From positions 167,374-231,373 of the forward strand of contig JAISVX010000003.1 of NCBI GenBank assembly GCA_031271345.1: a DNA stretch of 64,000 nt. The letters run 5' to 3'. The notes under the pieces were generated by a model. That model was not told the DNA's origin. It saw nothing but the letters and a program-made list of their open reading frames with translations, and did not search any database. The stretch comes from Lactobacillaceae bacterium. GTDB taxonomy: Bacteria > Pseudomonadota > Alphaproteobacteria > RF32 > CAG-239. Positions 21,787-33,158 of this stretch are shown here, one piece after another; the stretch's first letter is position 1; each line of letters starts with the position of its first letter. Made by a program: the position numbers and the translations under genes.

Positions 21787-24459
21787 TTATAGGTTAAAGT
21801 CGGTTATACCATCATAAGCATAGCGGTATAACTGCTCTATTTCCGCAATCAGCGGGTAGCGCGGATTGGCGCTGGTGCATTGGTCGTCAAAAGCAAGAGC
21901 TGCCAAACCTTCTTTTAAAGCCTGTTCAAAGTCTTCTTTTGCAACGCCAAAGTCTTTTATTGATTTTGGAACGCCGATTTCTTCTTTAAGTTTTTCTATG
22001 GCCTTTATTAAATTGCCGACTTTCTCGTCATCATTTTTGCCGCCAAATCCCATATAATCGGAAACGCTTGCATATTTTGCCTTAACATTAGGGAACTTAT
22101 ATTGCGGGAAAGCAGCCTGTTTTACTGGAACATCAGTGGCGTTATAACGAATAACCTGGCTGATTAACAGGGCGTTTGCCCAGCCGTGCGGAATGTGAAA
22201 TCTGTTGCCCAATTTGTGCGCCATAGAGTGGCAGACGCCGAGAAAAGCATTGGCGAAAGCCATGCCGGCTATTGTCGCGGCATGATGAACTTTTTCTTTT
22301 GCTTCAAAATCTTCTCCGCCGTTTTTATAAGAACGCGGCAGGTAGTTAAAAACTAGTTTAGCCGCTTCCAATGACTGTCCGTGGGTAAAATCGCTGGACA
22401 TAACCGATACATAAGATTCTAAAGCGTGAGTCATAATATCGATGCCGGAAGCGGAGGTTAAGCCTTTTGGCATTGTAAGCACCAGGTTTGTATCGACAAT
22501 TGCCATATCAGGGGTCAGCGCATAGTCTGCAATCGCATATTTTGTACCGGTCGCATTATCTGTGATAATAGAAAAAGGAGTGACCTCGGAACCTGTGCCG
22601 GAAGTCGTCGGGATAGCTGCCATTTTGGCTTTTTTTCCAAGCTTGGGAAACTCGAAAATTCTTTTTCTAATATCCATAAAGCGCATTGCAAGGTCTTCAA
22701 ATTTAAGTTCTGGATGTTCGTACATCAGCCATATAACTTTTGCCGCATCCATTGGCGAGCCGCCGCCTAAAGCGATGATAACATCCGGATTGAAGCCGTT
22801 GACCACTTTCATCGCGCGGTTAACGGTGTCCAAGTCAGGATCAGGGTTTACATCCGAAAAGATTTGATACTGAACGCCAATATCATCAAGAACTTTAGTA
22901 ACTTTGTCGGTCAGACCTAAATCAAACAAAGGTTTATCAGTAATGATAAACGCGCGTTTTCTATCGGCAAGTTCTCTTAGCGCATACTCGGTCGAACCAG
23001 CTTTGAAATAAATATTTGACGGAACTTTATACCACAACATGTTTTCTTCTTTCATAGCAACAGTTTTAATGTTTATAAGATGTTTAATACCAACGTTTTC
23101 ACTGACGGAATTTCCTCCCCACGAACCGCATCCAAGTGTTAAGGACGGGTCTGTTTTGAAATTATATAAATCGCCGATTGCTCCTTGAGAAGCGGGGGTG
23201 TTGATTAATATGCGCCCGGTATTCATAACTTTTCCGAAAAAGCTTATTCTGTCTTTGTTGGCGTTGTTGGTATAAAGAACGGAAGTATGTCCGTTGCCGC
23301 CAAAAGAAACCAGTTGTTTTGCTTTGTTTACGGCATCGGAAAAATCATTTGCTTCATACAGCCCCAGAATTGGTGAAAGCTTTTCTTCGGATAAAGGCTC
23401 AGAATGTCCGATTTCTTTTAGCTCCGCCATAAGAACTTTTGCTTTTTCATTTACCTTAAAACCCGCCATGCCGGCGATTTTATATGCGGATTGACCGACA
23501 ATGTCGGCGTTTAATTTGCCGTCCTTGAATGCCGTATGCTCAAGTTTTTCTTTTTCTACGATATTTGTAATATATGCTCCGCGTTTTAAGAACTCCTCTT
23601 TTACTTTTTTATATGCTGATTGAACGCAGACCACAGACTGTTCGGAAGCGCAGATAACGCCGTTGTCAAAAGTTTTGCTTAAAAGAATTGAGCTTACGGC
23701 TTCTTCAATATCGGCGGTTTCATCAATGACTACAGGCGTATTCCCAGCACCCACGCCCAAAGCCGGTTTGCCGGAGCTGTATGCGGCTTTAACCATTCCC
23801 GGACCGCCGGTCGCGAGAATAACGTCAACTTTTGGGTGTTTCATTAAAAGCCCGGACATGGTTATTGTCGGGTTTTCTATCCATCCGATAATATTTTCAG
23901 GCGCTCCGGCTTTTACAGCCTCCTCAAGCATGATTTTTACTGTCTCAACGGTAGATTTCTTTGCGCGCGGGTGAGGCGAGAAGATGATGGCGTTTCTGGT
24001 TTTTAAGGCTATTAATGTTTTGAATATTGCGGTGGATGTCGGGTTTGTAGTTGGAACAACACCGGCAATAACGCCGAGAGGAGAGGCGACTTTAAGAATT
24101 TTTCTTTCAAAATCTTCATAAATAATATCGCAGGTTTTTTCATTTTTATATTTGTTATAGACATATTCGGAAGCAAAATGGTTTTTAATTACTTTGTCTT
24201 CAACAATTCCCATTCCTGTTTCTTCCACCGCCATTTGCGCAAGAGGAATACGAAAAGTACTTATTCTAAGAGCGACTTTTCTAAAAATTTCATCAACTTT
24301 TTCTTGAGGAAACGCTGCGAACTCTTTTTGCGCGTCGCTCACTTTTTCTACCAGCTCGTCAATATACTTAACTTCATCAAAAGCTTCTATATCATCGTCG
24401 TTTTTTACTATCACTTTTATCTCCATGTTTAAAAATCTATTTATCTTAATATTTGTCAT
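21787..24459 (-). CDS. adhE: Bifunctional acetaldehyde-CoA / alcohol dehydrogenase AdhE
   Basis: Collinear with E. coli AdhE throughout (GMGIVEDKVIKNHFASEY; VPTTNPTSTAIFK; GSWGGNSVSENVG; Fe-ADH motif GGGSPMDAAK; HSMAHKLG). The start may be the internal GTG preceded by GGAGA. Confidence 0.9.
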   Translation of the reverse strand: MTNIKINRFLNMEIKVIVKNDDDIEAFDEVKYIDELVEKVSDAQKEFAAFPQEKVDEIFRKVALRISTFRIPLAQMAVEETGMGIVEDKVIKNHFASEYVYNKYKNEKTCDIIYEDFERKILKVASPLGVIAGVVPTTNPTSTAIFKTLIALKTRNAIIFSPHPRAKKSTVETVKIMLEEAVKAGAPENIIGWIENPTITMSGLLMKHPKVDVILATGGPGMVKAAYSSGKPALGVGAGNTPVVIDETADIEEAVSSILLSKTFDNGVICASEQSVVCVQSAYKKVKEEFLKRGAYITNIVEKEKLEHTAFKDGKLNADIVGQSAYKIAGMAGFKVNEKAKVLMAELKEIGHSEPLSEEKLSPILGLYEANDFSDAVNKAKQLVSFGGNGHTSVLYTNNANKDRISFFGKVMNTGRILINTPASQGAIGDLYNFKTDPSLTLGCGSWGGNSVSENVGIKHLINIKTVAMKEENMLWYKVPSNIYFKAGSTEYALRELADRKRAFIITDKPLFDLGLTDKVTKVLDDIGVQYQIFSDVNPDPDLDTVNRAMKVVNGFNPDVIIALGGGSPMDAAKVIWLMYEHPELKFEDLAMRFMDIRKRIFEFPKLGKKAKMAAIPTTSGTGSEVTPFSIITDNATGTKYAIADYALTPDMAIVDTNLVLTMPKGLTSASGIDIMTHALESYVSVMSSDFTHGQSLEAAKLVFNYLPRSYKNGGEDFEAKEKVHHAATIAGMAFANAFLGVCHSMAHKLGNRFHIPHGWANALLISQVIRYNATDVPVKQAAFPQYKFPNVKAKYASVSDYMGFGGKNDDEKVGNLIKAIEKLKEEIGVPKSIKDFGVAKEDFEQALKEGLAALAFDDQCTSANPRYPLIAEIEQLYRYAYDGITDFNL

Positions 24460-24622
24460 AAAATTAGAAATAATTCAATAGTGATTTTTTTCACGATTTG
24501 TTACGTGTTGTAACAAAAGCTTCTGTTTTAGTCAGAAATATCACGGTTGAAAGAAGTTTATAATTGTAAAAGACTTTTCAGCGCATATATAAATGATAAG
24601 AAACTATAGAAGAGAGATAAAC

Positions 24623-25762
24623 ATGAAAAGGCTGTTGTCAATTTTTAAAAAGGCGGGCGATAATTCGCTTCCTTTGATATTGGGCATTGTTTTAGCGCTT
24701 GTTTGGGCGAATATGGATTACGATGGATACACAGCTTTTTGGCACAATAAAATATTTGGCGTCGTTGATTTGCATTTTCTGGTTAATGATATTTTCATGG
24801 TGTTTTTCTTTGCTTTGGCAGGGGTTGAAATTGTCAGAGCCTTATCGCCGAACGGAAGTTTGTATCCAATGAAAAACGCGGTATCAAACTTGTTTGCGAC
24901 GGCGGGGGGCGTTATTGTACCCGCCGCTGTATTCTTTTTGCTTATATACTTTTTTGGTCATCCAAAATACAGCCACGGCTGGGCAATTCCCACGGCGACG
25001 GATATTGCCATATCTTTACTGTTTGCGCGTATTGTTTTTGGGGAAAAGCACCCGGTCGTAGTGTTCTTGATTATGCTTGCGGTTTTAGATGACGCCATAG
25101 GTCTGGCTATTATTGCGGTTTTTTATCCAGACCCTTCATCGCCGGTGAGGCTGGTTTTTTTCTGTTTTGTGTTGGCGGCAATGCTTTTGGCTTTTATCTT
25201 TAACAGAATGAAAATAAAGCCGTATCTGCCGTATATATTAATTCCCGGCATTATTTCATGGTTTGGCATGTATAAAGCCAATCTGCACCCTTCTTTGGCT
25301 CTTATCTTTATTTTGCCGTTCATTCCAAACAAGAAAGTTTTGCCGTCTGATAAAACTTCTCTGGATAAATTTGAGCATAACTGGAAGTATTTTGTTAGTT
25401 TTGGGCTGGTTTTCTTTGGGCTGGCAAATGCTGGAGTTGAGCTGACAAAGGTTTCCGACTTGGCGATAATTGTTTTCTTATCATTACTGTTTGGCAAAAC
25501 AATCGGTATTTTAGGTTTTGCAAAATTAGCGGGTTTGCTGCGCTTCCCGGTACCTGCTGGGATTAAAACTTCGGAGCTTTTTATTATGAGCTTAATTGCC
25601 TCGGTCGGTCTTACCGTGTCGTTGTTTATATCAAGCATCGCTTATGTTGACTCGGAGCTTCAGGATGCCGCAAAAATGGGGGCATTGTTTAGTTTGCTCA
25701 ACGGGTTTACAGCCGTGATTGCCGCGAAGGTCTTGCTAAGAAAAAAGCCGGCTAAAGAATAG
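24623..25762 (+). CDS. nhaA: Na+/H+ antiporter NhaA
   Basis: ~12-TM protein with NhaA-typical blocks (LAVLDDAIGLAIIAVFY; discontinuous-helix region). The start was chosen at the Met preceded by AGAGA; the ORF track starts at 24593. Confidence 0.8.
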   Translation: MKRLLSIFKKAGDNSLPLILGIVLALVWANMDYDGYTAFWHNKIFGVVDLHFLVNDIFMVFFFALAGVEIVRALSPNGSLYPMKNAVSNLFATAGGVIVPAAVFFLLIYFFGHPKYSHGWAIPTATDIAISLLFARIVFGEKHPVVVFLIMLAVLDDAIGLAIIAVFYPDPSSPVRLVFFCFVLAAMLLAFIFNRMKIKPYLPYILIPGIISWFGMYKANLHPSLALIFILPFIPNKKVLPSDKTSLDKFEHNWKYFVSFGLVFFGLANAGVELTKVSDLAIIVFLSLLFGKTIGILGFAKLAGLLRFPVPAGIKTSELFIMSLIASVGLTVSLFISSIAYVDSELQDAAKMGALFSLLNGFTAVIAAKVLLRKKPAKE

Positions 25763-25825
25763 GGGATTTAAAAAGACAAAACCCCTCGGGTTATGAGAGG
25801 TTTTTATCTAAACACTTTTTAGAAA

Positions 25826-28800
25826 CTAAAATTTGTATTCAACACCGGCTTTAATTTCATAAGAACCGTCCCTCTCAATAATTTTACCCGCTTCGGTAAA
25901 CAGGTTAAGAGATTTGAAGTAATAATCTAATCTGCCTGATATTAGACCTCTGGATTTATCGCTTTCATAGCCCTTCATGTTATAATAGCCCGGCATGCCG
26001 AACATTGTCGCGTTTGAATTGCCGTAAGTATCGCCAAATTCTTGATAGAAAGTGCCGCCAATACGAACTTTTACAGAATTAAAATCGTCAATCTCAAAAG
26101 TTTTCTTCGCATATAAACCAAGCCCGCCTTCAACAGACAAGCTGTTGGAAGATTTAACGGTCAACTGCTGCTTTTCTTTGGTTTTTGTTTGGTATACGCC
26201 CAGAACATTAAACTCTGCCGTTGGTTCAAGCGTGAAGAAACCTAAATCAATGTCTTTTCTTACTTCGTTGGTAACTCCGTAGTAATAATTTTTTGTATCC
26301 GCTTTATAAATATTGCCGGAAACAACTCTGCGGTAATCGCCCCATCCGAGACCAACTCTTGGCATAGATACAAAAGCGATTGTATCTGTTTGATATTTTA
26401 ACGGCGCCAATATGTGGACTAAAGTGTCGTCTCTTTTCGAAGAATTGTCATATTCGCTGTTTAATTGGGTTATTGTGAAACCCGCGCCATAACTGAAATT
26501 GTTGTTATATCTCTTTTGAACCAATCCATAAACAGAATGCGCGTCTTCTTCATAACCCTCAACCGCTCCAGACGCTTCCTGGTCTTTTTGTATGAAGTCA
26601 TAGCCCATCATCGCAACAACTTCGCGAGGGTCGTTATTTGCAAATACGCTGTTGTTAACCTGACGGTTTAAGCTCTTAACAGCTTCAAGATTCTGTCTTG
26701 CAAAACTTGGGAAGAAGTCTAAGCCAAGAAAGTTGTTCACCGCTTTTGTCAAACCGTTTTGATTGTTTGCATTTTTTACTGCATTAAACAGAGTTAACGC
26801 ATTTTGCGCTTTTTTGCTCTCAGTCTCTCCTGACGCGTTATACAAGTCGTAGGCATTATTTAAGTATTTAGCCAGATATTTGTCGGAAACAACTTCGTCA
26901 AACTCTTTCATAGTCATTACAACATCTTTGTTTCCGTCTCTGTTTTCTACCAGTTCCGCGTTGAACATGTAAGAATTTGAAAGCAGTTCTAATTCTGAGC
27001 TGTCGCCGATAAACGCGTTTTCGCTGACAAAAGATTTGTTAAAGCTGTCCGTTGTAATATTAGAGCCGGCATAAACTATGCCTGATATTTCTGGAGCTTC
27101 GTATTTTCCGTCTTTCTCAACAACAATTTTTCCGCCTTTCAAAGTCCAGTCATTAAAGTTAATCGCTGTTGAAGATATGGTTATGCCGCCGCTTCCGGTA
27201 ACAAACTCTGCGTTGTCGCCAATAGAAATATAAGAGGATGCGTTACAATCGTCATCGCTGCAGCTGTTAGTTCCGATTTTTATTGTGCCGTCATTATAAA
27301 CATAAGATGTGTCTGTTGTGGTTCCTACCGCATAGATACCGTTGCCGCTGCCGGTTATATTGATAATACCAGTCGCGGCATTATACACTAATGCGCCGTT
27401 TAAGGCAATTATGCCGGCGCTGGCGGTGTTATTGGATGTTATATTAATAGTGCCTCTATTTACGGCTTTTGAATCTGCGCCGGTAGCATACATGCCATAA
27501 GCTTTTACGGTGTTAGTCGTACTGGAAATGTTTATTGTCGCTCCAACATCGTTTACAATTGCCGCGCCTCCGGTTGTAAACATGCCTATTAGAGAAGTAT
27601 TTGCGGTAGTGCCGCTTAAGGAAATTGTTCCTCTGTTATATGCCTTGCTGTCCGTTCCGGTAACCGCCATTCCATAAGTATCAGCGGCTGCGGTTGTTAC
27701 GGTTATTTTACCATTAGCCATATTTATCAGTTCCGCGCCGTCAACGCCATACATGCCGTATCCGCCCAGCATTCCAATTGAACCGCTGTTTACCGCCTGC
27801 GTGCCTTCGCCTTCCACATACATTCCAGAGCCGGACTGGGCGAGTTTTATAACGCCGCTGCTTAAGTTTGTAATTTTTGCGCCGTCAATAGCGACCATAC
27901 CATAACCTAGCCCTGCGCTGATATTGATTTTTCCGGCGTTTTCTGCCGAGCTTTCTCCAGAGAAAGCAGTCATACCAGTAGCCACGGCATCAATCGTGCC
28001 GTTTGTACCGTTTGTGACCTTGCCGCCCAATGTAGCCTGCATGCCGGAGGTTGTTATATAATCGTCAACGCTTCCGCCGGATATGGTAATTTGACTGTTG
28101 TTTACAGCCGTGCCGCTATTTGAAGTCTGCATGCCTATACCCTGGGATATTTTAATGGTTCCGCCTGATGAATTGGTAACAGTGCCGCCGGATGTCATCA
28201 TTCCAAATGCGTCAACACCTCCGACATATTCTATTGTTCCAGAGTTAAAACCTTCACCGTTTTCAGTATATACGCCGATTGTTCCGTTTCCAGTCAGATT
28301 TATATTTCCCATATTATAGGCTTTACCTTCATTTGCCATCATTCCATAGCTGTCCGCGCCGACAACGTTTAGCTTTCCAGAACTGGTGTTCATTACAACG
28401 CCTGTAGCTCCAGATACGCCCAATCCGACAGAGTTGATTTTGTTAATGTTTATTGTGCCGTTGTTTACGCCTTGTCCGCCATTGGCAAAGACGCCAAAGC
28501 TTTCCTGATCGTTTAATTCAATGGTTCCGTCGTTTCTTGCCGTACCTTCGGTAGTATACATGCCGTAAGAAGCAGGATCCATATCGGAGCCGGTAATGCT
28601 GATTGTAACGCCGGCGGAGTTTACGGATGAACTTCCTGCATTTCCATCAATTCCTATGCCGCCGTTGCTAAGCATTATGCCGGCTTTGTTAAGAATTGTT
28701 CCAGAGCCGGTTGCGGTAATGCCGTATCCGAAGAAACCGCTTATGGTTATGGCTGCATTGTTGGTTATTGAGCCGTTTTCGGCAGAAATGCCCGTGCCAT

Positions 28801-31390
28801 AGTTATTGTTGATGTACGCGCTGTTTCCGACGAGATTTATTTGACCGTAGTTATCAATTGTTGTCGAGCCTTCCCCAACGATACCTGCATTTTGCGTTCC
28901 ATCTAAATTGGAGTTAATGATAATTTTTCCATAGTTATAGACTTTGCCGTTTTCAACATATATGCCAGTTCCGTCCTTGCCGTTAATGTTTATCTCTGCA
29001 TTGGCATTATTTGAGGCTGTGCCGTTATACACAATGCCTGATGACTGAATGCCGGAAGAGTTATCCGCGTCAACATCAATCAATTTAAGGTTTTCAATAG
29101 TTCCGCTATCGCTTAGTATGCCGACGCCGGTTCCTTCTATTTTTACTGTTCCGTTATTAACGATATTGCCTGTCATTGAAGATATTCCATCGCCGCCGCT
29201 TTTCATAGTGATGGTGCCGTCATTGGTGACTTTGCCGTTTTCTGACAAAATGCCGACTCCTTTAAGCTCAAAAGTGATTTTTCCCGAACTTAAGTTGTTT
29301 ACGTTGGCATTTTCAGAATATATACCATAAGACGGGGTAGCAGTTGGGTCAACGTTGTTTACATTGATATTTATCTGCCCGGTATTGTTCACTGTTCCGG
29401 CTACGGCATATAGTCCGTAGTTGTTTTTGCTGACTGACGAAATAATATTTTCAACATTAACGATGCCGTTGTTGTTTAGTGTTCCATATTCAATATATAT
29501 GCCGTAAGAGTCGTCCGCTTTATTAATGTTAACCGTGCCGCTGTTATTAACCGCTGTTCCGGCAGTGTCGTAGTTTGTGCTTCCTTCTCCGACAGGGTTT
29601 CTAATGACCGTAATTCCTTTGCCGCCGCTGTTCATGGTGATAACGCCGGTATTGTTTATTGTTCCGGCGTTTGAGTGAATGCCGGTGCCTGTAGAAGCAA
29701 AATTAATCTGGTTTGTATTGCTTATGCTTCCGCCATGAAGAGAAATCATTCCATATCCGCCGATACTATCCATATTGATAGAGCCGGTATTGGTTAATGT
29801 CGGTTTGCGCACATCAAATTCAGAGTTTGTACCGTTTCCGCGAATGGCAATCATGCCGTATCCTTCGGTGCCGCCTTTAACGCTGATTGCACCTTGGTTA
29901 AGCAAAGTTCCTCCGTGAACTGACAGCATGCCTGCATGAGAACCTGTAAAATCTGCGTCGTCATTTGATTCGACCTCAACATTTACGGTCCCGGTAGAGG
30001 TGTTGGTGGCCGTAGTGTTCGCGTCAGCCCTGATACCGATAATGCCGTTGTTTGCTTCGCGAATGTTTGTGACATAGCTTGATGAGCCGACGAGAGATGA
30101 TTTTACGCTTATTTGACCACTGTTGGTGATTTCAACATAACCGGCTCTGCTTAGAAGTTTTTTACCATTAGTGAAATCTTCTTCAATGTAGCTTCCCATA
30201 CCAACCAGAGCGGTCGCATTAGAAGACGATGTTGAAGTGTTGCTCAAATCGATTACTCCCGTTACCCCGTTAGTAAGTTTTGTAGCGTAAGCTGGAGTTG
30301 GATTGTCTTCCTGGTTTATAATTCTTCCCTGCATGCCGACCAATGTGCCTGCCGTAGCGTTAGAGCTTATGGTTTTGATGTTTTTGTTGTTTAGTATTAA
30401 TCCGTTTGTGTCCGAATATATGCCGATAATTTGGTGTGTGTCAAAAGAACCTTCAAAGCTCATTAATATATCGCCGCCGTTTGTTGCCTGTCCGTTATCG
30501 CTGGCAATCATTCCCACAGTTCCGCTTGCGGCATTGATTTGGATTATATTGTTATTAAATGCTGTGGCTCCATTTCCCAAAGCTACCAAGCCTGCGGTAA
30601 CGTTTTTAAGGTTTATTGTTCCGTTATTCGTTAGGGAAGTGTTTTGGTATGCTTTAAATGCGACCTGAATATATTTTGCATATTCAAGAATGTTGCTGTT
30701 AAAATCCATCCAGGAAAGAAGGTATTTGCCATCCTCGAACATTCTGTCATTATCAAAAGTTAAACTTTCTGTATTTGTGTATGACGAGCCATTTTGAGCT
30801 TTTTTATATATTGCCTGGTATCCGGCTGGAGCATCATAAGGTTTTAATGTTCCGGCAAAATCTCCGAGGTTGTCGTTTGTAGCTTTGTATCCATGACCAC
30901 CACCGCCTCCGCCGCCTCCGCCACCGCCAGCGGCAAGGGCAACTCCCGCGCCGGCAAGCAATAATCCGCCGATAACCCAGGTTTTGGTAGAAATAACGAA
31001 CTCACCTTTGTCAAACCTTGTGTAAGCGGCTCTTGGCGTTTCTTCCAGCCCGACCACGCCGCTTGAGTTCATGAAAGAATTGTATTGTTGTCTTGGAATA
31101 TTTTGGGTACATCCGTGTTTTGGGTTGGAGCCTGCGGCTCTAAAAGCATTATATGCTGTTTTATTGTTTCTTTTTATGGCATAACATAAACCAGTGTCCC
31201 CGTTTCTGTCTACGGTATCAATATTCATTCCGCGCTGGACAGCCGCTCTCAATGCCCTTACGTTTCCAGAAGAAGCGTAGCCGTACATTTGTGAAAGATT
31301 TAGAGGAGGAATATTTGCATGACTTGCAGTACTGGTAAAATAGAAACACACTGCAGTAATTATTGAAATACTTTTACGAAAATTTCCCAT
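25826..31390 (-). CDS. Giant type Va autotransporter (1854 aa) with an ankyrin-like N-terminal module, a Gly11 tract, a long beta-helix passenger and a C-terminal beta-barrel
   Basis: N-terminal signal peptide. 1.5 ANK-like repeats (NGDTGLCYAIKRNNKTAYNAFRAAGSNP). A second hydrophobic segment then G11 (DNA 30896-30928). Hundreds of G-x-G/NxGTI beta-helix repeats. The C-terminal barrel ends ...IKAGVEYKF. Confidence 0.8.
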   Translation of the reverse strand: MGNFRKSISIITAVCFYFTSTASHANIPPLNLSQMYGYASSGNVRALRAAVQRGMNIDTVDRNGDTGLCYAIKRNNKTAYNAFRAAGSNPKHGCTQNIPRQQYNSFMNSSGVVGLEETPRAAYTRFDKGEFVISTKTWVIGGLLLAGAGVALAAGGGGGGGGGGGHGYKATNDNLGDFAGTLKPYDAPAGYQAIYKKAQNGSSYTNTESLTFDNDRMFEDGKYLLSWMDFNSNILEYAKYIQVAFKAYQNTSLTNNGTINLKNVTAGLVALGNGATAFNNNIIQINAASGTVGMIASDNGQATNGGDILMSFEGSFDTHQIIGIYSDTNGLILNNKNIKTISSNATAGTLVGMQGRIINQEDNPTPAYATKLTNGVTGVIDLSNTSTSSSNATALVGMGSYIEEDFTNGKKLLSRAGYVEITNSGQISVKSSLVGSSSYVTNIREANNGIIGIRADANTTATNTSTGTVNVEVESNDDADFTGSHAGMLSVHGGTLLNQGAISVKGGTEGYGMIAIRGNGTNSEFDVRKPTLTNTGSINMDSIGGYGMISLHGGSISNTNQINFASTGTGIHSNAGTINNTGVITMNSGGKGITVIRNPVGEGSTNYDTAGTAVNNSGTVNINKADDSYGIYIEYGTLNNNGIVNVENIISSVSKNNYGLYAVAGTVNNTGQININVNNVDPTATPSYGIYSENANVNNLSSGKITFELKGVGILSENGKVTNDGTITMKSGGDGISSMTGNIVNNGTVKIEGTGVGILSDSGTIENLKLIDVDADNSSGIQSSGIVYNGTASNNANAEININGKDGTGIYVENGKVYNYGKIIINSNLDGTQNAGIVGEGSTTIDNYGQINLVGNSAYINNNYGTGISAENGSITNNAAITISGFFGYGITATGSGTILNKAGIMLSNGGIGIDGNAGSSSVNSAGVTISITGSDMDPASYGMYTTEGTARNDGTIELNDQESFGVFANGGQGVNNGTININKINSVGLGVSGATGVVMNTSSGKLNVVGADSYGMMANEGKAYNMGNINLTGNGTIGVYTENGEGFNSGTIEYVGGVDAFGMMTSGGTVTNSSGGTIKISQGIGMQTSNSGTAVNNSQITISGGSVDDYITTSGMQATLGGKVTNGTNGTIDAVATGMTAFSGESSAENAGKINISAGLGYGMVAIDGAKITNLSSGVIKLAQSGSGMYVEGEGTQAVNSGSIGMLGGYGMYGVDGAELINMANGKITVTTAAADTYGMAVTGTDSKAYNRGTISLSGTTANTSLIGMFTTGGAAIVNDVGATINISSTTNTVKAYGMYATGADSKAVNRGTINITSNNTASAGIIALNGALVYNAATGIINITGSGNGIYAVGTTTDTSYVYNDGTIKIGTNSCSDDDCNASSYISIGDNAEFVTGSGGITISSTAINFNDWTLKGGKIVVEKDGKYEAPEISGIVYAGSNITTDSFNKSFVSENAFIGDSSELELLSNSYMFNAELVENRDGNKDVVMTMKEFDEVVSDKYLAKYLNNAYDLYNASGETESKKAQNALTLFNAVKNANNQNGLTKAVNNFLGLDFFPSFARQNLEAVKSLNRQVNNSVFANNDPREVVAMMGYDFIQKDQEASGAVEGYEEDAHSVYGLVQKRYNNNFSYGAGFTITQLNSEYDNSSKRDDTLVHILAPLKYQTDTIAFVSMPRVGLGWGDYRRVVSGNIYKADTKNYYYGVTNEVRKDIDLGFFTLEPTAEFNVLGVYQTKTKEKQQLTVKSSNSLSVEGGLGLYAKKTFEIDDFNSVKVRIGGTFYQEFGDTYGNSNATMFGMPGYYNMKGYESDKSRGLISGRLDYYFKSLNLFTEAGKIIERDGSYEIKAGVEYKF

Positions 31391-31558
31391 TAACGGTTCA
31401 CCTATATAGTTTCATTAAATGCTCGCACTATACAACATCAAAATAATTCCTGTTACAAACAAGGCTTATTTTGTTGTGTATCATACTTTTTGTGTAATAT
31501 ACTAACATCAACTTCTTAAAAATCTAGTTAATTTTTATAAAAAATACAGGAGAGCTTC

Positions 31559-32719
31559 ATGAATTTATTAAAGAAAATAGACCTTTGGCAAAATGAAGGG
31601 ATTATCAGCTCCGATCAGGCTTCGGCAATTAGGACATTCGAAGCCAAAGACAAAAAGCCGACATTGATATATATGTTGTTGTTTTTAAGCGTTTTTTGTA
31701 TAGGCGTCGGGATAGTTTCTTTAATTGCATCAAATTGGAAAATGATACCGGCAGGCGTAAAACTAACAATAGATTTTGCCATTTTAATCAGCGCGGCATT
31801 AGGGATTTATTGGTCGGAAATTAATAAGAAAAACTTTATAAAAGAGAGCTTAATCATCCTGTTCGCAATTTTGGTTATTGCGACAATAGGTCTTGTCGCG
31901 CAAATTTATCATTTAAAATCCAACGGTTACAGCGCGGCTTTATTCTGGTCCATAATGATTGCCCCTTTGTTTTTTATCACCAGAAAAAGCATTTTGCCTT
32001 TTGTCTGGCTGTTTGTCTTTAACTATGCTTTTTTTGCCTGGATGTTTGCAAATTTTCCTGCTTTGAGAGAGATTGTGTCTGCGGTTGCAAGCAGAAATGA
32101 TATGATAATTACCGGCTATTATTTATCATTGCTGGCGCTTTTTGGATGCTTTATGCTTGGAAAATATAAAGATAAGGTTTCATATTTAATTAAGCCGGTT
32201 TTTGTTTGGCTGATAATTTCTATTATAATCCAGTCGGTTTTCATGGAGTTTAAGTATAACTGGTATAAAAGTCTGCAATATTATGATGGAGGAATATCTT
32301 ATTCATCCGCGGCTTTACTGATAATCGGGTTGTTTTCTCTGGCTGTCGTGTCCGCATATTTATATAGAAAAGAAGCGGCTGCTTATATATTTTATTCCAT
32401 AATGGTTTTAATGCTGTTTTCGCTGTTTATTGATGCCGCCGGTTATTCAAAATTAGTAAAAGCCGCTTCAACATTTTCAATGCTGGCTTTGTTAATGGCA
32501 TACGCGCATAAAAACAATGCCGCAAAGCTGTTTAACTTTGCCGGAGCTTTGGCGGCGGTTAGAATATTTATTATATATCTGCAGGTTTTCGGCTCATTGC
32601 TCACTACAGGCGTCGGTCTTATAATTTCCGGGCTGATTCTGCTCGGCATAATTATAGTTTGGCATAAAATAAGCATAAGAGTAAAAAGCAAATTTAAGGA
32701 GAAAACAAATGAAGCGTAA
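31559..32719 (+). CDS. Polytopic membrane protein, DUF2157/DUF4401-like (low-confidence family call)
   Basis: The N-terminus LLKKIDLWQNEGIISSDQASAI resembles DUF2157 starts. ~10 TM helices. First gene of a tightly overlapping + strand operon. Confidence 0.4.
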   Translation: MNLLKKIDLWQNEGIISSDQASAIRTFEAKDKKPTLIYMLLFLSVFCIGVGIVSLIASNWKMIPAGVKLTIDFAILISAALGIYWSEINKKNFIKESLIILFAILVIATIGLVAQIYHLKSNGYSAALFWSIMIAPLFFITRKSILPFVWLFVFNYAFFAWMFANFPALREIVSAVASRNDMIITGYYLSLLALFGCFMLGKYKDKVSYLIKPVFVWLIISIIIQSVFMEFKYNWYKSLQYYDGGISYSSAALLIIGLFSLAVVSAYLYRKEAAAYIFYSIMVLMLFSLFIDAAGYSKLVKAASTFSMLALLMAYAHKNNAAKLFNFAGALAAVRIFIIYLQVFGSLLTTGVGLIISGLILLGIIIVWHKISIRVKSKFKEKTNEA

Positions 32720-33158
32720 CTATATTGTAGCGGCTATATTGGCTTTTCCAGTCTTTATGCTGTTTTTCTGGGTGCTGTCCGTGCAGAATAAAATTAATAA
32801 CGCGGAGACTGTAATGGTCGCCGTAACCGGATATGACCCGAGAGACCTTCTTTCCGGGCATTATGTTGTACTGAGACCTGTATGGGATGATACGGATTAT
32901 GAGCAGTTTAACAATAATAAATTTTCCAGAAATGATTTTGATTACAGCTATAGATTCTATCTTCCCGAAGAAGATGCGGAGTATCTTGACAGAGTCGTCG
33001 GACGTACGCGTGATTTGAAGATGTTTTTGGAATTTGCTATGCCGGCAAACTCTAAGCCGATTGTTAAAGAACTTTACATTGAAGGATTGAAGTGGAAAGA
33101 GTGGCTGGATAAAAACCCTGCTCCCAAGAATGAAAATGACCGTTATGACAGATGGTAA
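32709..33158 (+). CDS. GDYXXLXY-domain-like protein (low confidence)
   Basis: N-terminal TM anchor, then SGHYVVLRPVW, which resembles the GDYxxLxY motif. Overlaps both neighbouring genes. Confidence 0.3.
   Translation: MKRNYIVAAILAFPVFMLFFWVLSVQNKINNAETVMVAVTGYDPRDLLSGHYVVLRPVWDDTDYEQFNNNKFSRNDFDYSYRFYLPEEDAEYLDRVVGRTRDLKMFLEFAMPANSKPIVKELYIEGLKWKEWLDKNPAPKNENDRYDRW

Follow-up and report, generated by a model that had tools for sequence, protein, structure and literature searches.

A predicted ankyrin-helix-glycine module at the N-terminus of giant type Va autotransporters of uncultured gut Alphaproteobacteria

Autotransporters are the textbook example of a simple secretion system, and their passengers are not expected to hold transmembrane-like helices or pre-folded domains. 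By definition, everything between the signal peptide and the C-terminal barrel of a type Va autotransporter is passenger. Here, we describe a protein of this type that is encoded on the reverse strand of a 64,000-nucleotide stretch of contig JAISVX010000003.1 (assembly GCA_031271345.1, positions 167,374 to 231,373; this whole stretch is called the window in the following). It is the product of one intact gene of an uncultured gut alphaproteobacterium and is a classical type Va autotransporter, which carries a predicted ankyrin-type domain, an uncharged hydrophobic helix and a run of glycines, together referred to as the module, in front of its passenger stalk. Pertactin, Ag43 and the BigA-like giant adhesins (PF03797) share with this protein a repetitive passenger with rungs of ~24 amino acids (aa) and a barrel ending in Phe, besides an N-terminal Sec signal peptide, which here is predicted, and the BigA type also gives weak passenger-domain matches in this protein and its homologues. 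However, no autotransporter-specific Pfam or NCBIfam model matches the ankyrin-helix-poly-Gly region.

VacA of Helicobacter pylori is likewise a type Va autotransporter and has an uncharged, Gly-rich N-terminal segment, which passes Sec without arrest and later inserts into the target membrane (PMC6452728). It differs from the protein of the window in that there is no sequence homology, and in that its segment lies at the mature N-terminus, contains three tandem GxxxG motifs and belongs to a hexameric channel. The window protein instead has a ~100-aa ankyrin domain before the helix and a poly-Gly hinge after it, and a zipper spacing is not enriched in its helix. No VacA-related match was found in Pfam or the PDB, and homology to a VacA-like pore-former was not found for this autotransporter. 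A second comparison concerns the ESPR (PF13018), a conserved N-terminal element that is independent of the passenger type, is linked to very long passengers and has been proposed as an inner-membrane tether. The ESPR is, however, part of the signal peptide and comprises ~25 aa on the N-in side, whereas here a predicted signal peptide of ordinary length is followed by a folded, exported domain and a separate helix. Additional periplasmic domains that stabilise the adhesin are described for trimeric autotransporters, in the form of coiled-coil, SLH and OmpA-like extensions (bioRxiv 10.64898/2026.01.22.700529). These extensions are C-terminal to the barrel, belong to type Vc and are almost absent from Proteobacteria, whereas the module of the window is N-terminal and belongs to a type Va protein of Alphaproteobacteria. 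The window protein is a member of type Va, and it is neither an ESPR protein nor a lipoprotein autotransporter nor a VacA homologue.

The ankyrin domain, its family and its conservation

The N-terminus of the protein, when scanned alone, matches the Pfam model Ank_4 over aa 39-77 with 24.7-25.7 bits (gathering score 22.7), and in the full-length scan the match stays just under this score with 21.5 bits. Ank_4 also matches all 13 family members tested, with E <= 0.01. A PDB sequence search with the single N-terminus returned mostly ankyrin proteins, together with weak unrelated matches to antibody fragments and spike proteins (E >= 0.1) that came from the Gly-rich region, whereas the search with a profile of the 13 family members returned ankyrin or DARPin chains only, the best with E = 1.5e-10. 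Furthermore, an AlphaFold2 model of aa 25-175, built on an alignment of 39 diverse homologues, has an ankyrin fold with a predicted local distance difference test (pLDDT) score of 89-96 over aa 35-124 and with helices at aa 32-40, 44-52, 67-73, 77-85, 93-97, 100-107 and 119-127. Foldseek searches with this model returned only ankyrin-repeat proteins, with weak E-values. A previous AlphaFold run on aa 1-260, which used 15 mostly truncated sequences, had reached a mean pLDDT of 45 and non-significant Foldseek matches. According to the model, the ankyrin domain is a compact stack of ~2.5-3 ankyrin-type helix pairs or repeats. An earlier note on this DNA, made from the sequence alone, had placed an ankyrin-like module after the signal peptide and before another hydrophobic stretch, and Ank_4, the PDB profile search and the model all agree with this; its count of 1.5 repeats turned out too low.

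Two cysteines stand out in this domain. Cys69 occupies the His position of the 'TPLH' motif of repeat 2, Cys94 is part of the next hairpin, and both are invariant in 39 diverse members. Since both residues are invariant, a disulfide between them is likely, from which we infer that the domain is located in an oxidising, extracytoplasmic compartment. Small Sec-exported ankyrin domains are known, and three of them are among the PDB or fold matches, namely 9iq8 (AnkB), 5d66 (A. baumannii ABAYE2397) and 5cer (Bd3460). The first two appeared in several searches, and 5cer only in the PDB search with the single N-terminus, at E = 1. They are ~14-21% identical to the ankyrin domain of the window and differ from it in being stand-alone domains with 3-5 repeats, whereas the window domain has 2.5-3 repeats and the Cys pair and is fused to a helix and an autotransporter.

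The domain is preceded by a predicted Sec-type signal peptide. By inspection, it consists of the basic n-region MGNFRKS, the core ISIITAVCFYF and the stretch TSTASHA with an S-H-A site before NIPP, and an equivalent signal peptide with an AxA-type (small-x-small) site is present in all 23 aligned homologues. An extended signal peptide of the ESPR type was considered and rejected: ~50 aa would be expected, the signal peptide has the ordinary length of ~24 aa, and PF13018 gave no match in the autotransporter at E <= 1.

At the other end of the chain, the last 350 aa scanned separately match PF03797 with E = 2.1e-20 and 74 bits (cut-off 26), and the match covers profile positions 11-252 of 255. 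The barrel thus scores above threshold and has the terminal Phe of type Va proteins in the ending ...GVEYKF, as had been noticed before, and the homologues have ...Y[RKA]F at this place. A scan of the complete 1854-aa protein did not report PF03797, and the region 25829-26878 was found only on its own. Moreover, a full-length NCBIfam scan gave no match, nor did a PDB sequence search of the barrel region. Giant repetitive autotransporters may be systematically missed by domain annotation.

The stalk between module and barrel is periodic at the protein level. Its autocorrelation peaks at lags 24, 48 and 23, and the spacing of the motifs agrees. A period of 23-25 aa over ~1140 aa corresponds to ~45-50 rungs, so that the hundreds of rungs previously claimed are an overcount. 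The rungs are rich in G/N/T/S/I, and from periodicity and composition the passenger is presumed to be a beta-helix stalk. Searches of the passenger against Pfam and PDB sequences gave no match, and no tandem repeat was found in it at the DNA level. The last third of the stalk (aa ~1101-1400, 27191-28090, reverse strand) is the most divergent segment, with 24-40% identity to relatives, and holds the only other Cys pair of the protein, CSDDDC.

Homologues were collected in two ways. A genome scan with one genome per species gave 22 loci, all in metagenome-assembled genomes (MAGs) labelled Alphaproteobacteria, 'uncultured proteobacterium', 'Azospirillum sp. UMGS63' or Candidatus Scatocola faecipullorum. 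The labelled relatives come from gut or faecal samples, including a MAG from water-deer caecum, and lend no support to the framing as intracellular, host-targeting bacteria that had been suggested from the ankyrin repeats. Ca. Scatocola is placed within the Rhodospirillales by NCBI, and the GTDB order of these MAGs is presumably RF32. The module opens a single intact open reading frame (ORF) in 19 of the 22 loci, with a length of 1764-3320 aa with a barrel-type ...Y[RKA]F end; of the remaining three, L005 and L018 run off their contigs and L020 is frameshifted. The translocator of the window protein is 42-60% identical over 300 aa to the homologues in the 19 loci.

The second collection comes from a phmmer search with aa 27-154 against 1.84 billion cluster representatives, which yielded 244 matches at E <= 1e-10. 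A word-indexed homologue search had given short fragments only, and the full-length members came from this exhaustive search of representatives. According to local hidden Markov models (HMMs), 104 proteins, most of them from the phmmer set, have the complete module without interruption, with a start at aa 21-36 in nearly all of them, and they form ~100 clusters at 50% identity. The other strong phmmer matches are ordinary multi-repeat ankyrin proteins. Among the module proteins with at least 1100 aa, 70 of 72 also match the barrel HMM of the window family (E = 1e-24 to 1e-155). Module and barrel are hence kept in one chain in 19/22 loci and 70/72 long proteins, which refutes a mis-fused pair and upholds the earlier description of a single ORF. 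None of the 22 loci has the module and the passenger with its barrel as two genes, each with a start and a signal peptide of its own. The sole member with a source name is a 'hypothetical protein [Pseudomonadota bacterium]'.

That the architecture is an assembly, frameshift or gene-fusion artefact peculiar to the window is most improbable. Several homologues are indeed truncated or end in frameshifted sequence (P0001, P0002, P0004, L020), but the ORF of the window is uninterrupted, the same architecture is found in the 19 intact loci of independent MAGs and in the 70 long database proteins, and the sequence of the junction region is conserved across the homologues. The homologues also keep the first 130 aa, so a mis-called start is not indicated. 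An internal start at Met107 was rejected, as this Met has no Shine-Dalgarno sequence upstream, read from the sequence, and is not conserved in part of the homologues; the earlier note was correct about the lacking ribosome binding site, with the position being aa 107 instead of 105.

In the alignment of the first 230 aa, the signal peptide is followed by LPPISLAQMY-x-ASxGNVRALRAAVQRGLNID-x2-DR-x-GNTGLC-x-I-x3-N-x-TAYNAF-x-A-x-GANP-x3-C-x-QNIP and further by R-x-AY, GEF, W-x2-GG-x-LL-x-GG-x2-AL and the Gly run. The module is a fixed unit of ~135 aa between the signal peptide and a variable passenger, and it consists of the ankyrin domain with its two invariant Cys, a ~19-aa uncharged helix rich in Gly/Ala/Leu/Trp and a Gly/Ser-rich hinge. 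In comparisons of the window protein with four relatives, identity is 64-77% in the ankyrin domain, 45-80% in the helix, 60-71% in the barrel, 31-58% in the linker after the Gly run and 24-65% in the stalk. The module is thus the best-conserved part of the protein, above even the barrel, and since it is most conserved and both Cys are invariant, it is probably functional. The autotransporters with this module constitute a large, unnamed and conserved subfamily.

The sequence that follows the module varies, and the total length reaches up to 4291 aa. The shortest complete member, P0093, has 532 aa and consists of a signal peptide, the module, a ~70-aa acidic linker of S/G/D/E/T and the barrel (aa 233-532), with the stalk being absent. 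In 19 of 93 members a Cys-rich stretch resembling epidermal growth factor (EGF) directly follows the Gly run at aa ~165-300, e.g. CVHGTMSDGVCTCSTGYSGEKCDTC; P0113, P0122, P0123, P0124, P0129 and P0147 belong to these. Disulfide-rich modules are unusual in autotransporter passengers. Genes of the family are often frameshifted or split in metagenome assemblies, mostly within the first few hundred passenger codons (P0001, P0002, P0004 of locus L002, L020 and L001), and many short contigs end 50-130 aa past the Gly run. Both observations are consistent with a conserved head followed by a strain-variable passenger that breaks assemblies.

In the literature on autotransporters and ankyrin, on RF32 gut Alphaproteobacteria and on N-terminal hydrophobic GxxxG segments, no description of this architecture was found; the matches for ankyrin were co-mentions in Rickettsia and Orientia papers. 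Pfam and NCBIfam cover the module by generic Ank models only. The earlier remark that an ankyrin module in a passenger is uncommon thus holds as far as the searched literature and family libraries are concerned, but the module is not a one-off, as it characterizes a large conserved subfamily.

The hydrophobic helix, the glycine tract and membrane topology

The second hydrophobic segment of the protein has an unusual composition. Among 96 members, it contains 23% G, 21% A, 18% L, 10% I, 9% W and 8.5% V, and it is uncharged in 93 of them. On the additive Hessa scale, which is a simple approximation of the insertion energy, its best 19-mer has a dG of +1.65 kcal/mol in the window protein and a median dG of +1.57 kcal/mol in the 96 members (interquartile range 0.7-2.6, 8% below 0). 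No further 19-mer with an additive Hessa dG < 3 was found in the mature protein. These values suggest a helix that likes membranes yet stays below the threshold for arrest in SecYEG. The N-terminus of VacA and viral fusion peptides likewise show such sub-arrest hydrophobicity. The flanks contain on average 1.72 K+R on the N-terminal and 0.83 on the C-terminal side, so that a positive-inside bias is absent on the C-terminal flank. A glycine-zipper-like small-xxx-small-xxx-small spacing is present in 68 of the 96 members (71%) and in 58% of shuffled sequences, and hence is not enriched. In the AlphaFold2 model aa 135-154 form a separate helix with a pLDDT of ~55, and the Gly tract is disordered.

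The helix does not conform to a bitopic inner-membrane protein, for which a dG <= 0, positive-inside flanks and a compatible topology were taken as criteria. Judging from the predicted order of the parts, it cannot be a stable inner-membrane span, because both of its flanks should be extracytoplasmic. The N-terminal flank is expected there since the signal peptide and the invariant Cys pair are located upstream of the helix, and the C-terminal flank since the passenger, which begins with the Cys-rich EGF-like stretch in 19 of 93 members, and the outer-membrane barrel are located downstream, without any hydrophobic segment that could restart export. Therefore, the unusual topology that had been proposed for this protein survives in a restricted form only: flank topology and sub-threshold hydrophobicity speak against a stable inner-membrane span.

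It has to be considered nevertheless that the second hydrophobic segment acts as a stop-transfer sequence or as a second signal peptide, which would place ankyrin domain and passenger on opposite sides of the inner membrane, or, as a variant, that the ankyrin part exists in vivo as a small protein of its own. We consider this very unlikely. Some homologues do have a 19-mer with dG <= 0 and basic residues past the Gly run (KKHH, KKKKK), K/R residues often occur just before the helix and A-x-A-like residues at its end, as in a fossil signal peptide, and two lineages carry in-frame TAA alleles 6-16 codons past the Gly run, which would yield a tail-anchored periplasmic ankyrin protein. However, a stop-transfer after a cleaved signal peptide would leave passenger and barrel in the cytoplasm, although PF03797 is conserved, and a cytoplasmic ankyrin domain is at odds with the conservation of the signal peptide and with the two invariant Cys. 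Moreover, the family median dG is +1.57 with 8% of members below 0, no start codon with a signal peptide behind it is present in the frame past the TAA alleles, and Met107 lacks a Shine-Dalgarno sequence and is not conserved.

The glycine tract comprises exactly 11 residues, as counted before. By our own arithmetic, such a run has a chance expectation of ~8e-7 at a Gly composition of 14%. A run of at least 3 Gly is found at this hinge in 84 of 93 members (range 3-11 Gly), and a few members have a linker rich in D/K/S/H in its place. Slipped-strand ON/OFF switching at this tract was rejected because its codons are mixed and the slippage of whole GGN codons keeps the frame. Two further motifs around the helix were also examined and discarded. 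A lipobox L-[AS]-[GA]-C, as in a NalP/SphB1-like lipoprotein autotransporter or a lipoprotein with a Gly linker, is not present, as the sequence reads ...VALAA-GGGG without a Cys and a Cys occurs in 0 of 23 homologues. In the 'G-E-F' motif, which recalls type IV prepilins, the Glu is at the wrong position.

Possible places of action of the module

We tentatively prefer, while giving it somewhat less than an even chance, that the module forms the head at the distal end of the passenger, which is the default reading for a type Va protein. In this head, the ankyrin domain would offer a binding surface and the Gly/Ala helix, carried on a Gly hinge, would be membrane-active or self-associating. In this case, the signal peptide would carry the whole chain through SecYEG and would then be cleaved. 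The helix, tuned under the stop-transfer threshold, would follow the ankyrin domain into the periplasm without arrest in the inner membrane. The C-terminal barrel would be inserted by the beta-barrel assembly machinery (BAM) and the passenger threaded outward with its C-terminus first, so that the N-terminal module would emerge last and reach the distal tip of a stalk of ~45-50 rungs, to which it would be joined via the glycine hinge. At the tip, the ankyrin domain could serve as conserved binding head and the Gly/Ala-rich helix as membrane-active or self-associating element, with VacA as precedent, and the stalk would be a spacer of variable length that evolves fast. Because P0093 consists only of module, linker and barrel, the module alone can apparently be cargo. 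For VacA, insertion of the uncharged, GxxxG-rich N-terminal passenger segment into target membranes is documented (PMC6452728).

Several points weigh against a distal head. P0093 stands for one cluster only and might have arisen by deletion. The packing of the helix is not fixed by the model, in which its confidence is low (pLDDT ~55), and the glycine-zipper-like spacing, with 71% versus 58%, does not exceed that of shuffled sequences. The surface-exposed tip of an adhesin is usually the fastest-evolving part of the protein, whereas the module is the slowest-evolving part, below even the barrel, which would fit a conserved bacterial partner better than a host ligand. Autotransporters tolerate small folded elements only, and an ankyrin domain locked by a Cys69-Cys94 disulfide, which if formed would close a loop of 25 residues, should be hard to pass through the outer membrane. 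Furthermore, that the module is the same whatever passenger follows is the pattern of secretion devices such as the ESPR or the TPS domain.

This pattern leads to a serious, though somewhat less probable, alternative, in which the module is a device for biogenesis in the periplasm and acts inside the envelope instead of at the tip. The exported ankyrin domain would fold fast, might be oxidised and, together with the helix, would keep the N-terminus close to the inner membrane on its periplasmic side, or bound to a conserved periplasmic partner or chaperone. In this way, a passenger of 1,800-4,300 aa would be kept secretion-competent until the barrel is assembled, which would make the module a functional analogue of the ESPR. 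It is in line with such a device that the position of the module is invariant and its conservation exceeds that of the barrel, whatever the length (0 to ~4000 aa) or content of the passenger, and that the hydrophobicity of the helix is just under the integration threshold. The ankyrin matches in the PDB also include two periplasmic proteins, AnkB of P. aeruginosa (9iq8) and Bd3460 of Bdellovibrio (5cer). The autotransporter itself has no ESPR match at E <= 1. ESPR correlates with long passengers and is reported to be absent from the trimeric and type Va autotransporters of Alphaproteobacteria, in which also no alternative long signal peptide was detected (bioRxiv 10.64898/2026.01.22.700529), and signal peptides of the ESPR type have been proposed to hold the passenger at the inner membrane and to prevent misfolding (PMC3564066). 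On the other hand, no precedent is known for a folded domain in such a role, a peripheral tether is less compelling than a genuine signal-anchor, no conserved partner gene adjoins the autotransporter in the more distant member L033, and P0093 would hold a secretion device without anything to secrete.

In a more general form, the module could be an unrecognised envelope retention device of the Alphaproteobacteria without ESPR, in which a fast-folding, disulfide-locked ankyrin knob in the periplasm and the sub-threshold helix keep the N-terminus inside the envelope; this form we regard as rather doubtful. The retention might be temporary, either at the inner membrane or through a conserved periplasmic partner, or permanent, with the helix released from the BAM-barrel seam into the outer membrane. 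The latter would correspond to a two-point anchoring, for which the disulfide-locked ankyrin domain would remain in the periplasm as a stopper, the helix would span the outer membrane from the seam between BAM and barrel, and the glycine tract would exit to the surface, so that the passenger would be held at both ends. The helix has with ~19-20 aa about the length of one membrane thickness, is uncharged and carries a conserved Trp at its N-terminal end. Its N-terminal flank, here the periplasmic one, is richer in K/R, and its C-terminal flank consists of Gly/Ser/acidic residues. Both Cys are invariant, and the strong conservation of the ankyrin domain is what a part shielded from the outside would be expected to show. 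For a crowded pore, no chain could be thinner than a run of glycines. Yet alpha-helical spans of the outer membrane are rare, and we know of no mechanism for an outer-membrane two-point anchoring of this kind. Moreover, a rigid stalk of 45 to >100 rungs puts the N-terminus tens of nm away from the membrane, a distance that the ~95-aa linker cannot bridge in members of 3000 aa. An anchoring at two points is thus unlikely, and the distal head remains the reading that we prefer, at the tentative level given above.

Gene, neighbourhood and meaning of the module

The coordinates of the features are collected in Table 1. The autotransporter gene looks like a monocistronic unit. It is present as a single copy in the window and with one copy per homologue locus, and paralogous copies, which were looked for within the window, were not found. 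The GC content of the window is ~38-40%, and that of the autotransporter gene is slightly higher (42-44%).

Table 1. Features of the autotransporter locus in window coordinates
Feature	Residues (aa)	Position	Strand	Remarks
Complete ORF, type Va autotransporter	1-1854	25826..31390	-	1854 aa; ATG start; stop codon included; C-terminus ...GVEYKF
Promoter-like match		31456-31427	-	consensus match only
Shine-Dalgarno-like AGGTGA		31398..31403	-	7 nt 5' of ATG; read from sequence
Sec-type signal peptide (predicted)	1-24	31319..31390	-	MGNFRKSISIITAVCFYFTSTASHA, then NIPP; n/h/c regions by inspection
Ankyrin-type domain (predicted)	~30-128	31007..31303	-	invariant Cys69 and Cys94
Uncharged Gly/Ala-rich hydrophobic helix (predicted)	135-154	30929..30988	-	core WVIGGLLLAGAGVALAA, aa 138-154
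Gly11 tract, putative flexible hinge	155-165	30896..30928	-	mixed GGC/GGT/GGA codons
Poorly conserved linker	166-260	30611..30895	-	pLDDT 25-33 (shallow-alignment AlphaFold run); 31-58% identity to closest homologues
Repetitive passenger	261-1400	27191..30610	-	G-x-G-[IM]...N-x-G-x-I rungs; period ~23-25 aa
Pre-barrel region	1401-1560	26711..27190	-	weak BigA_beta-like match PF25783, E = 0.001, 19.2 bits, cut-off 24.3
C-terminal translocator	1561-1854	25829..26710	-	PF03797 match aa ~1603-1832; ends ...EYKF
Terminator-like hairpin and T-run		25778..25804	-	directly 3' of stop codon; consensus scan only
DUF2157 membrane protein (386 aa) and GDYXXLXY protein (149 aa)		31559-33158	+	divergent from autotransporter

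The DUF2157 and GDYXXLXY genes are syntenic with the autotransporter in close relatives (L002, L025, L030-L032) and do not lie beside it in the distant member L033. As they are neighbours in close relatives only, they were rejected as conserved partner genes. They are followed by genes for a HAD phosphatase and then for an iron-containing alcohol dehydrogenase. Directly downstream of the autotransporter stop, positions 21787-25762 of the window encode an NhaA-type Na+/H+ antiporter (PF06965, E = 3e-63) and an 890-aa ORF, which by eye looks like a bifunctional aldehyde/alcohol dehydrogenase.

The in-frame stop alleles occur in metagenome contigs of two lineages, 6-16 codons after the Gly tract, at sites homologous to ~30860-30890 of the window. 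In L025 a TAT is replaced by TAA past the Gly run (L025:6500-6520), which leads to a product of 171 aa, and the downstream frame is open for at least 321 codons. In L030 a GAA is replaced by TAA (L030:6560-6570) with a product of 188 aa, and the downstream frame is open for at least 1447 codons. Among L026-L029, four contigs, each assembled from another sample, end exactly one base before the first polymorphic site. Of the contigs that end near the second site, L032 stops exactly on the polymorphic base and L031 extends one base further. Since contigs end at the polymorphic sites, the assembly graphs apparently branch there. This suggests either ON and OFF alleles that coexist within samples or a junction at which strain-specific passengers diverge or recombine. 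The truncated product would plausibly be a tail-anchored periplasmic ankyrin protein.

Taken over the family, ~100 clusters of giant autotransporters from uncultured gut Alphaproteobacteria and unlabelled metagenome relatives share one fixed N-terminal module. As the one member with a source name is annotated as 'hypothetical protein' and Pfam scans of the full-length protein miss the barrel, the module merits a family model of its own. The final place of the ankyrin domain and the helix is a clear and testable question of topology, and each answer would have its own meaning for the biology of these bacteria. If the module is a head at the cell surface, it would provide a conserved, antibody-accessible handle on an abundant uncultured gut lineage and would be an example of an ankyrin domain at work in the extracellular space. 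As a periplasmic device, the module may account for the handling of passengers of 2000-4000 aa in a clade that is reported to lack ESPR, and it would represent a new step of type V secretion. If the N-terminus is retained in the envelope, the type V pathway of this clade would include a so far undescribed step of N-terminal retention.

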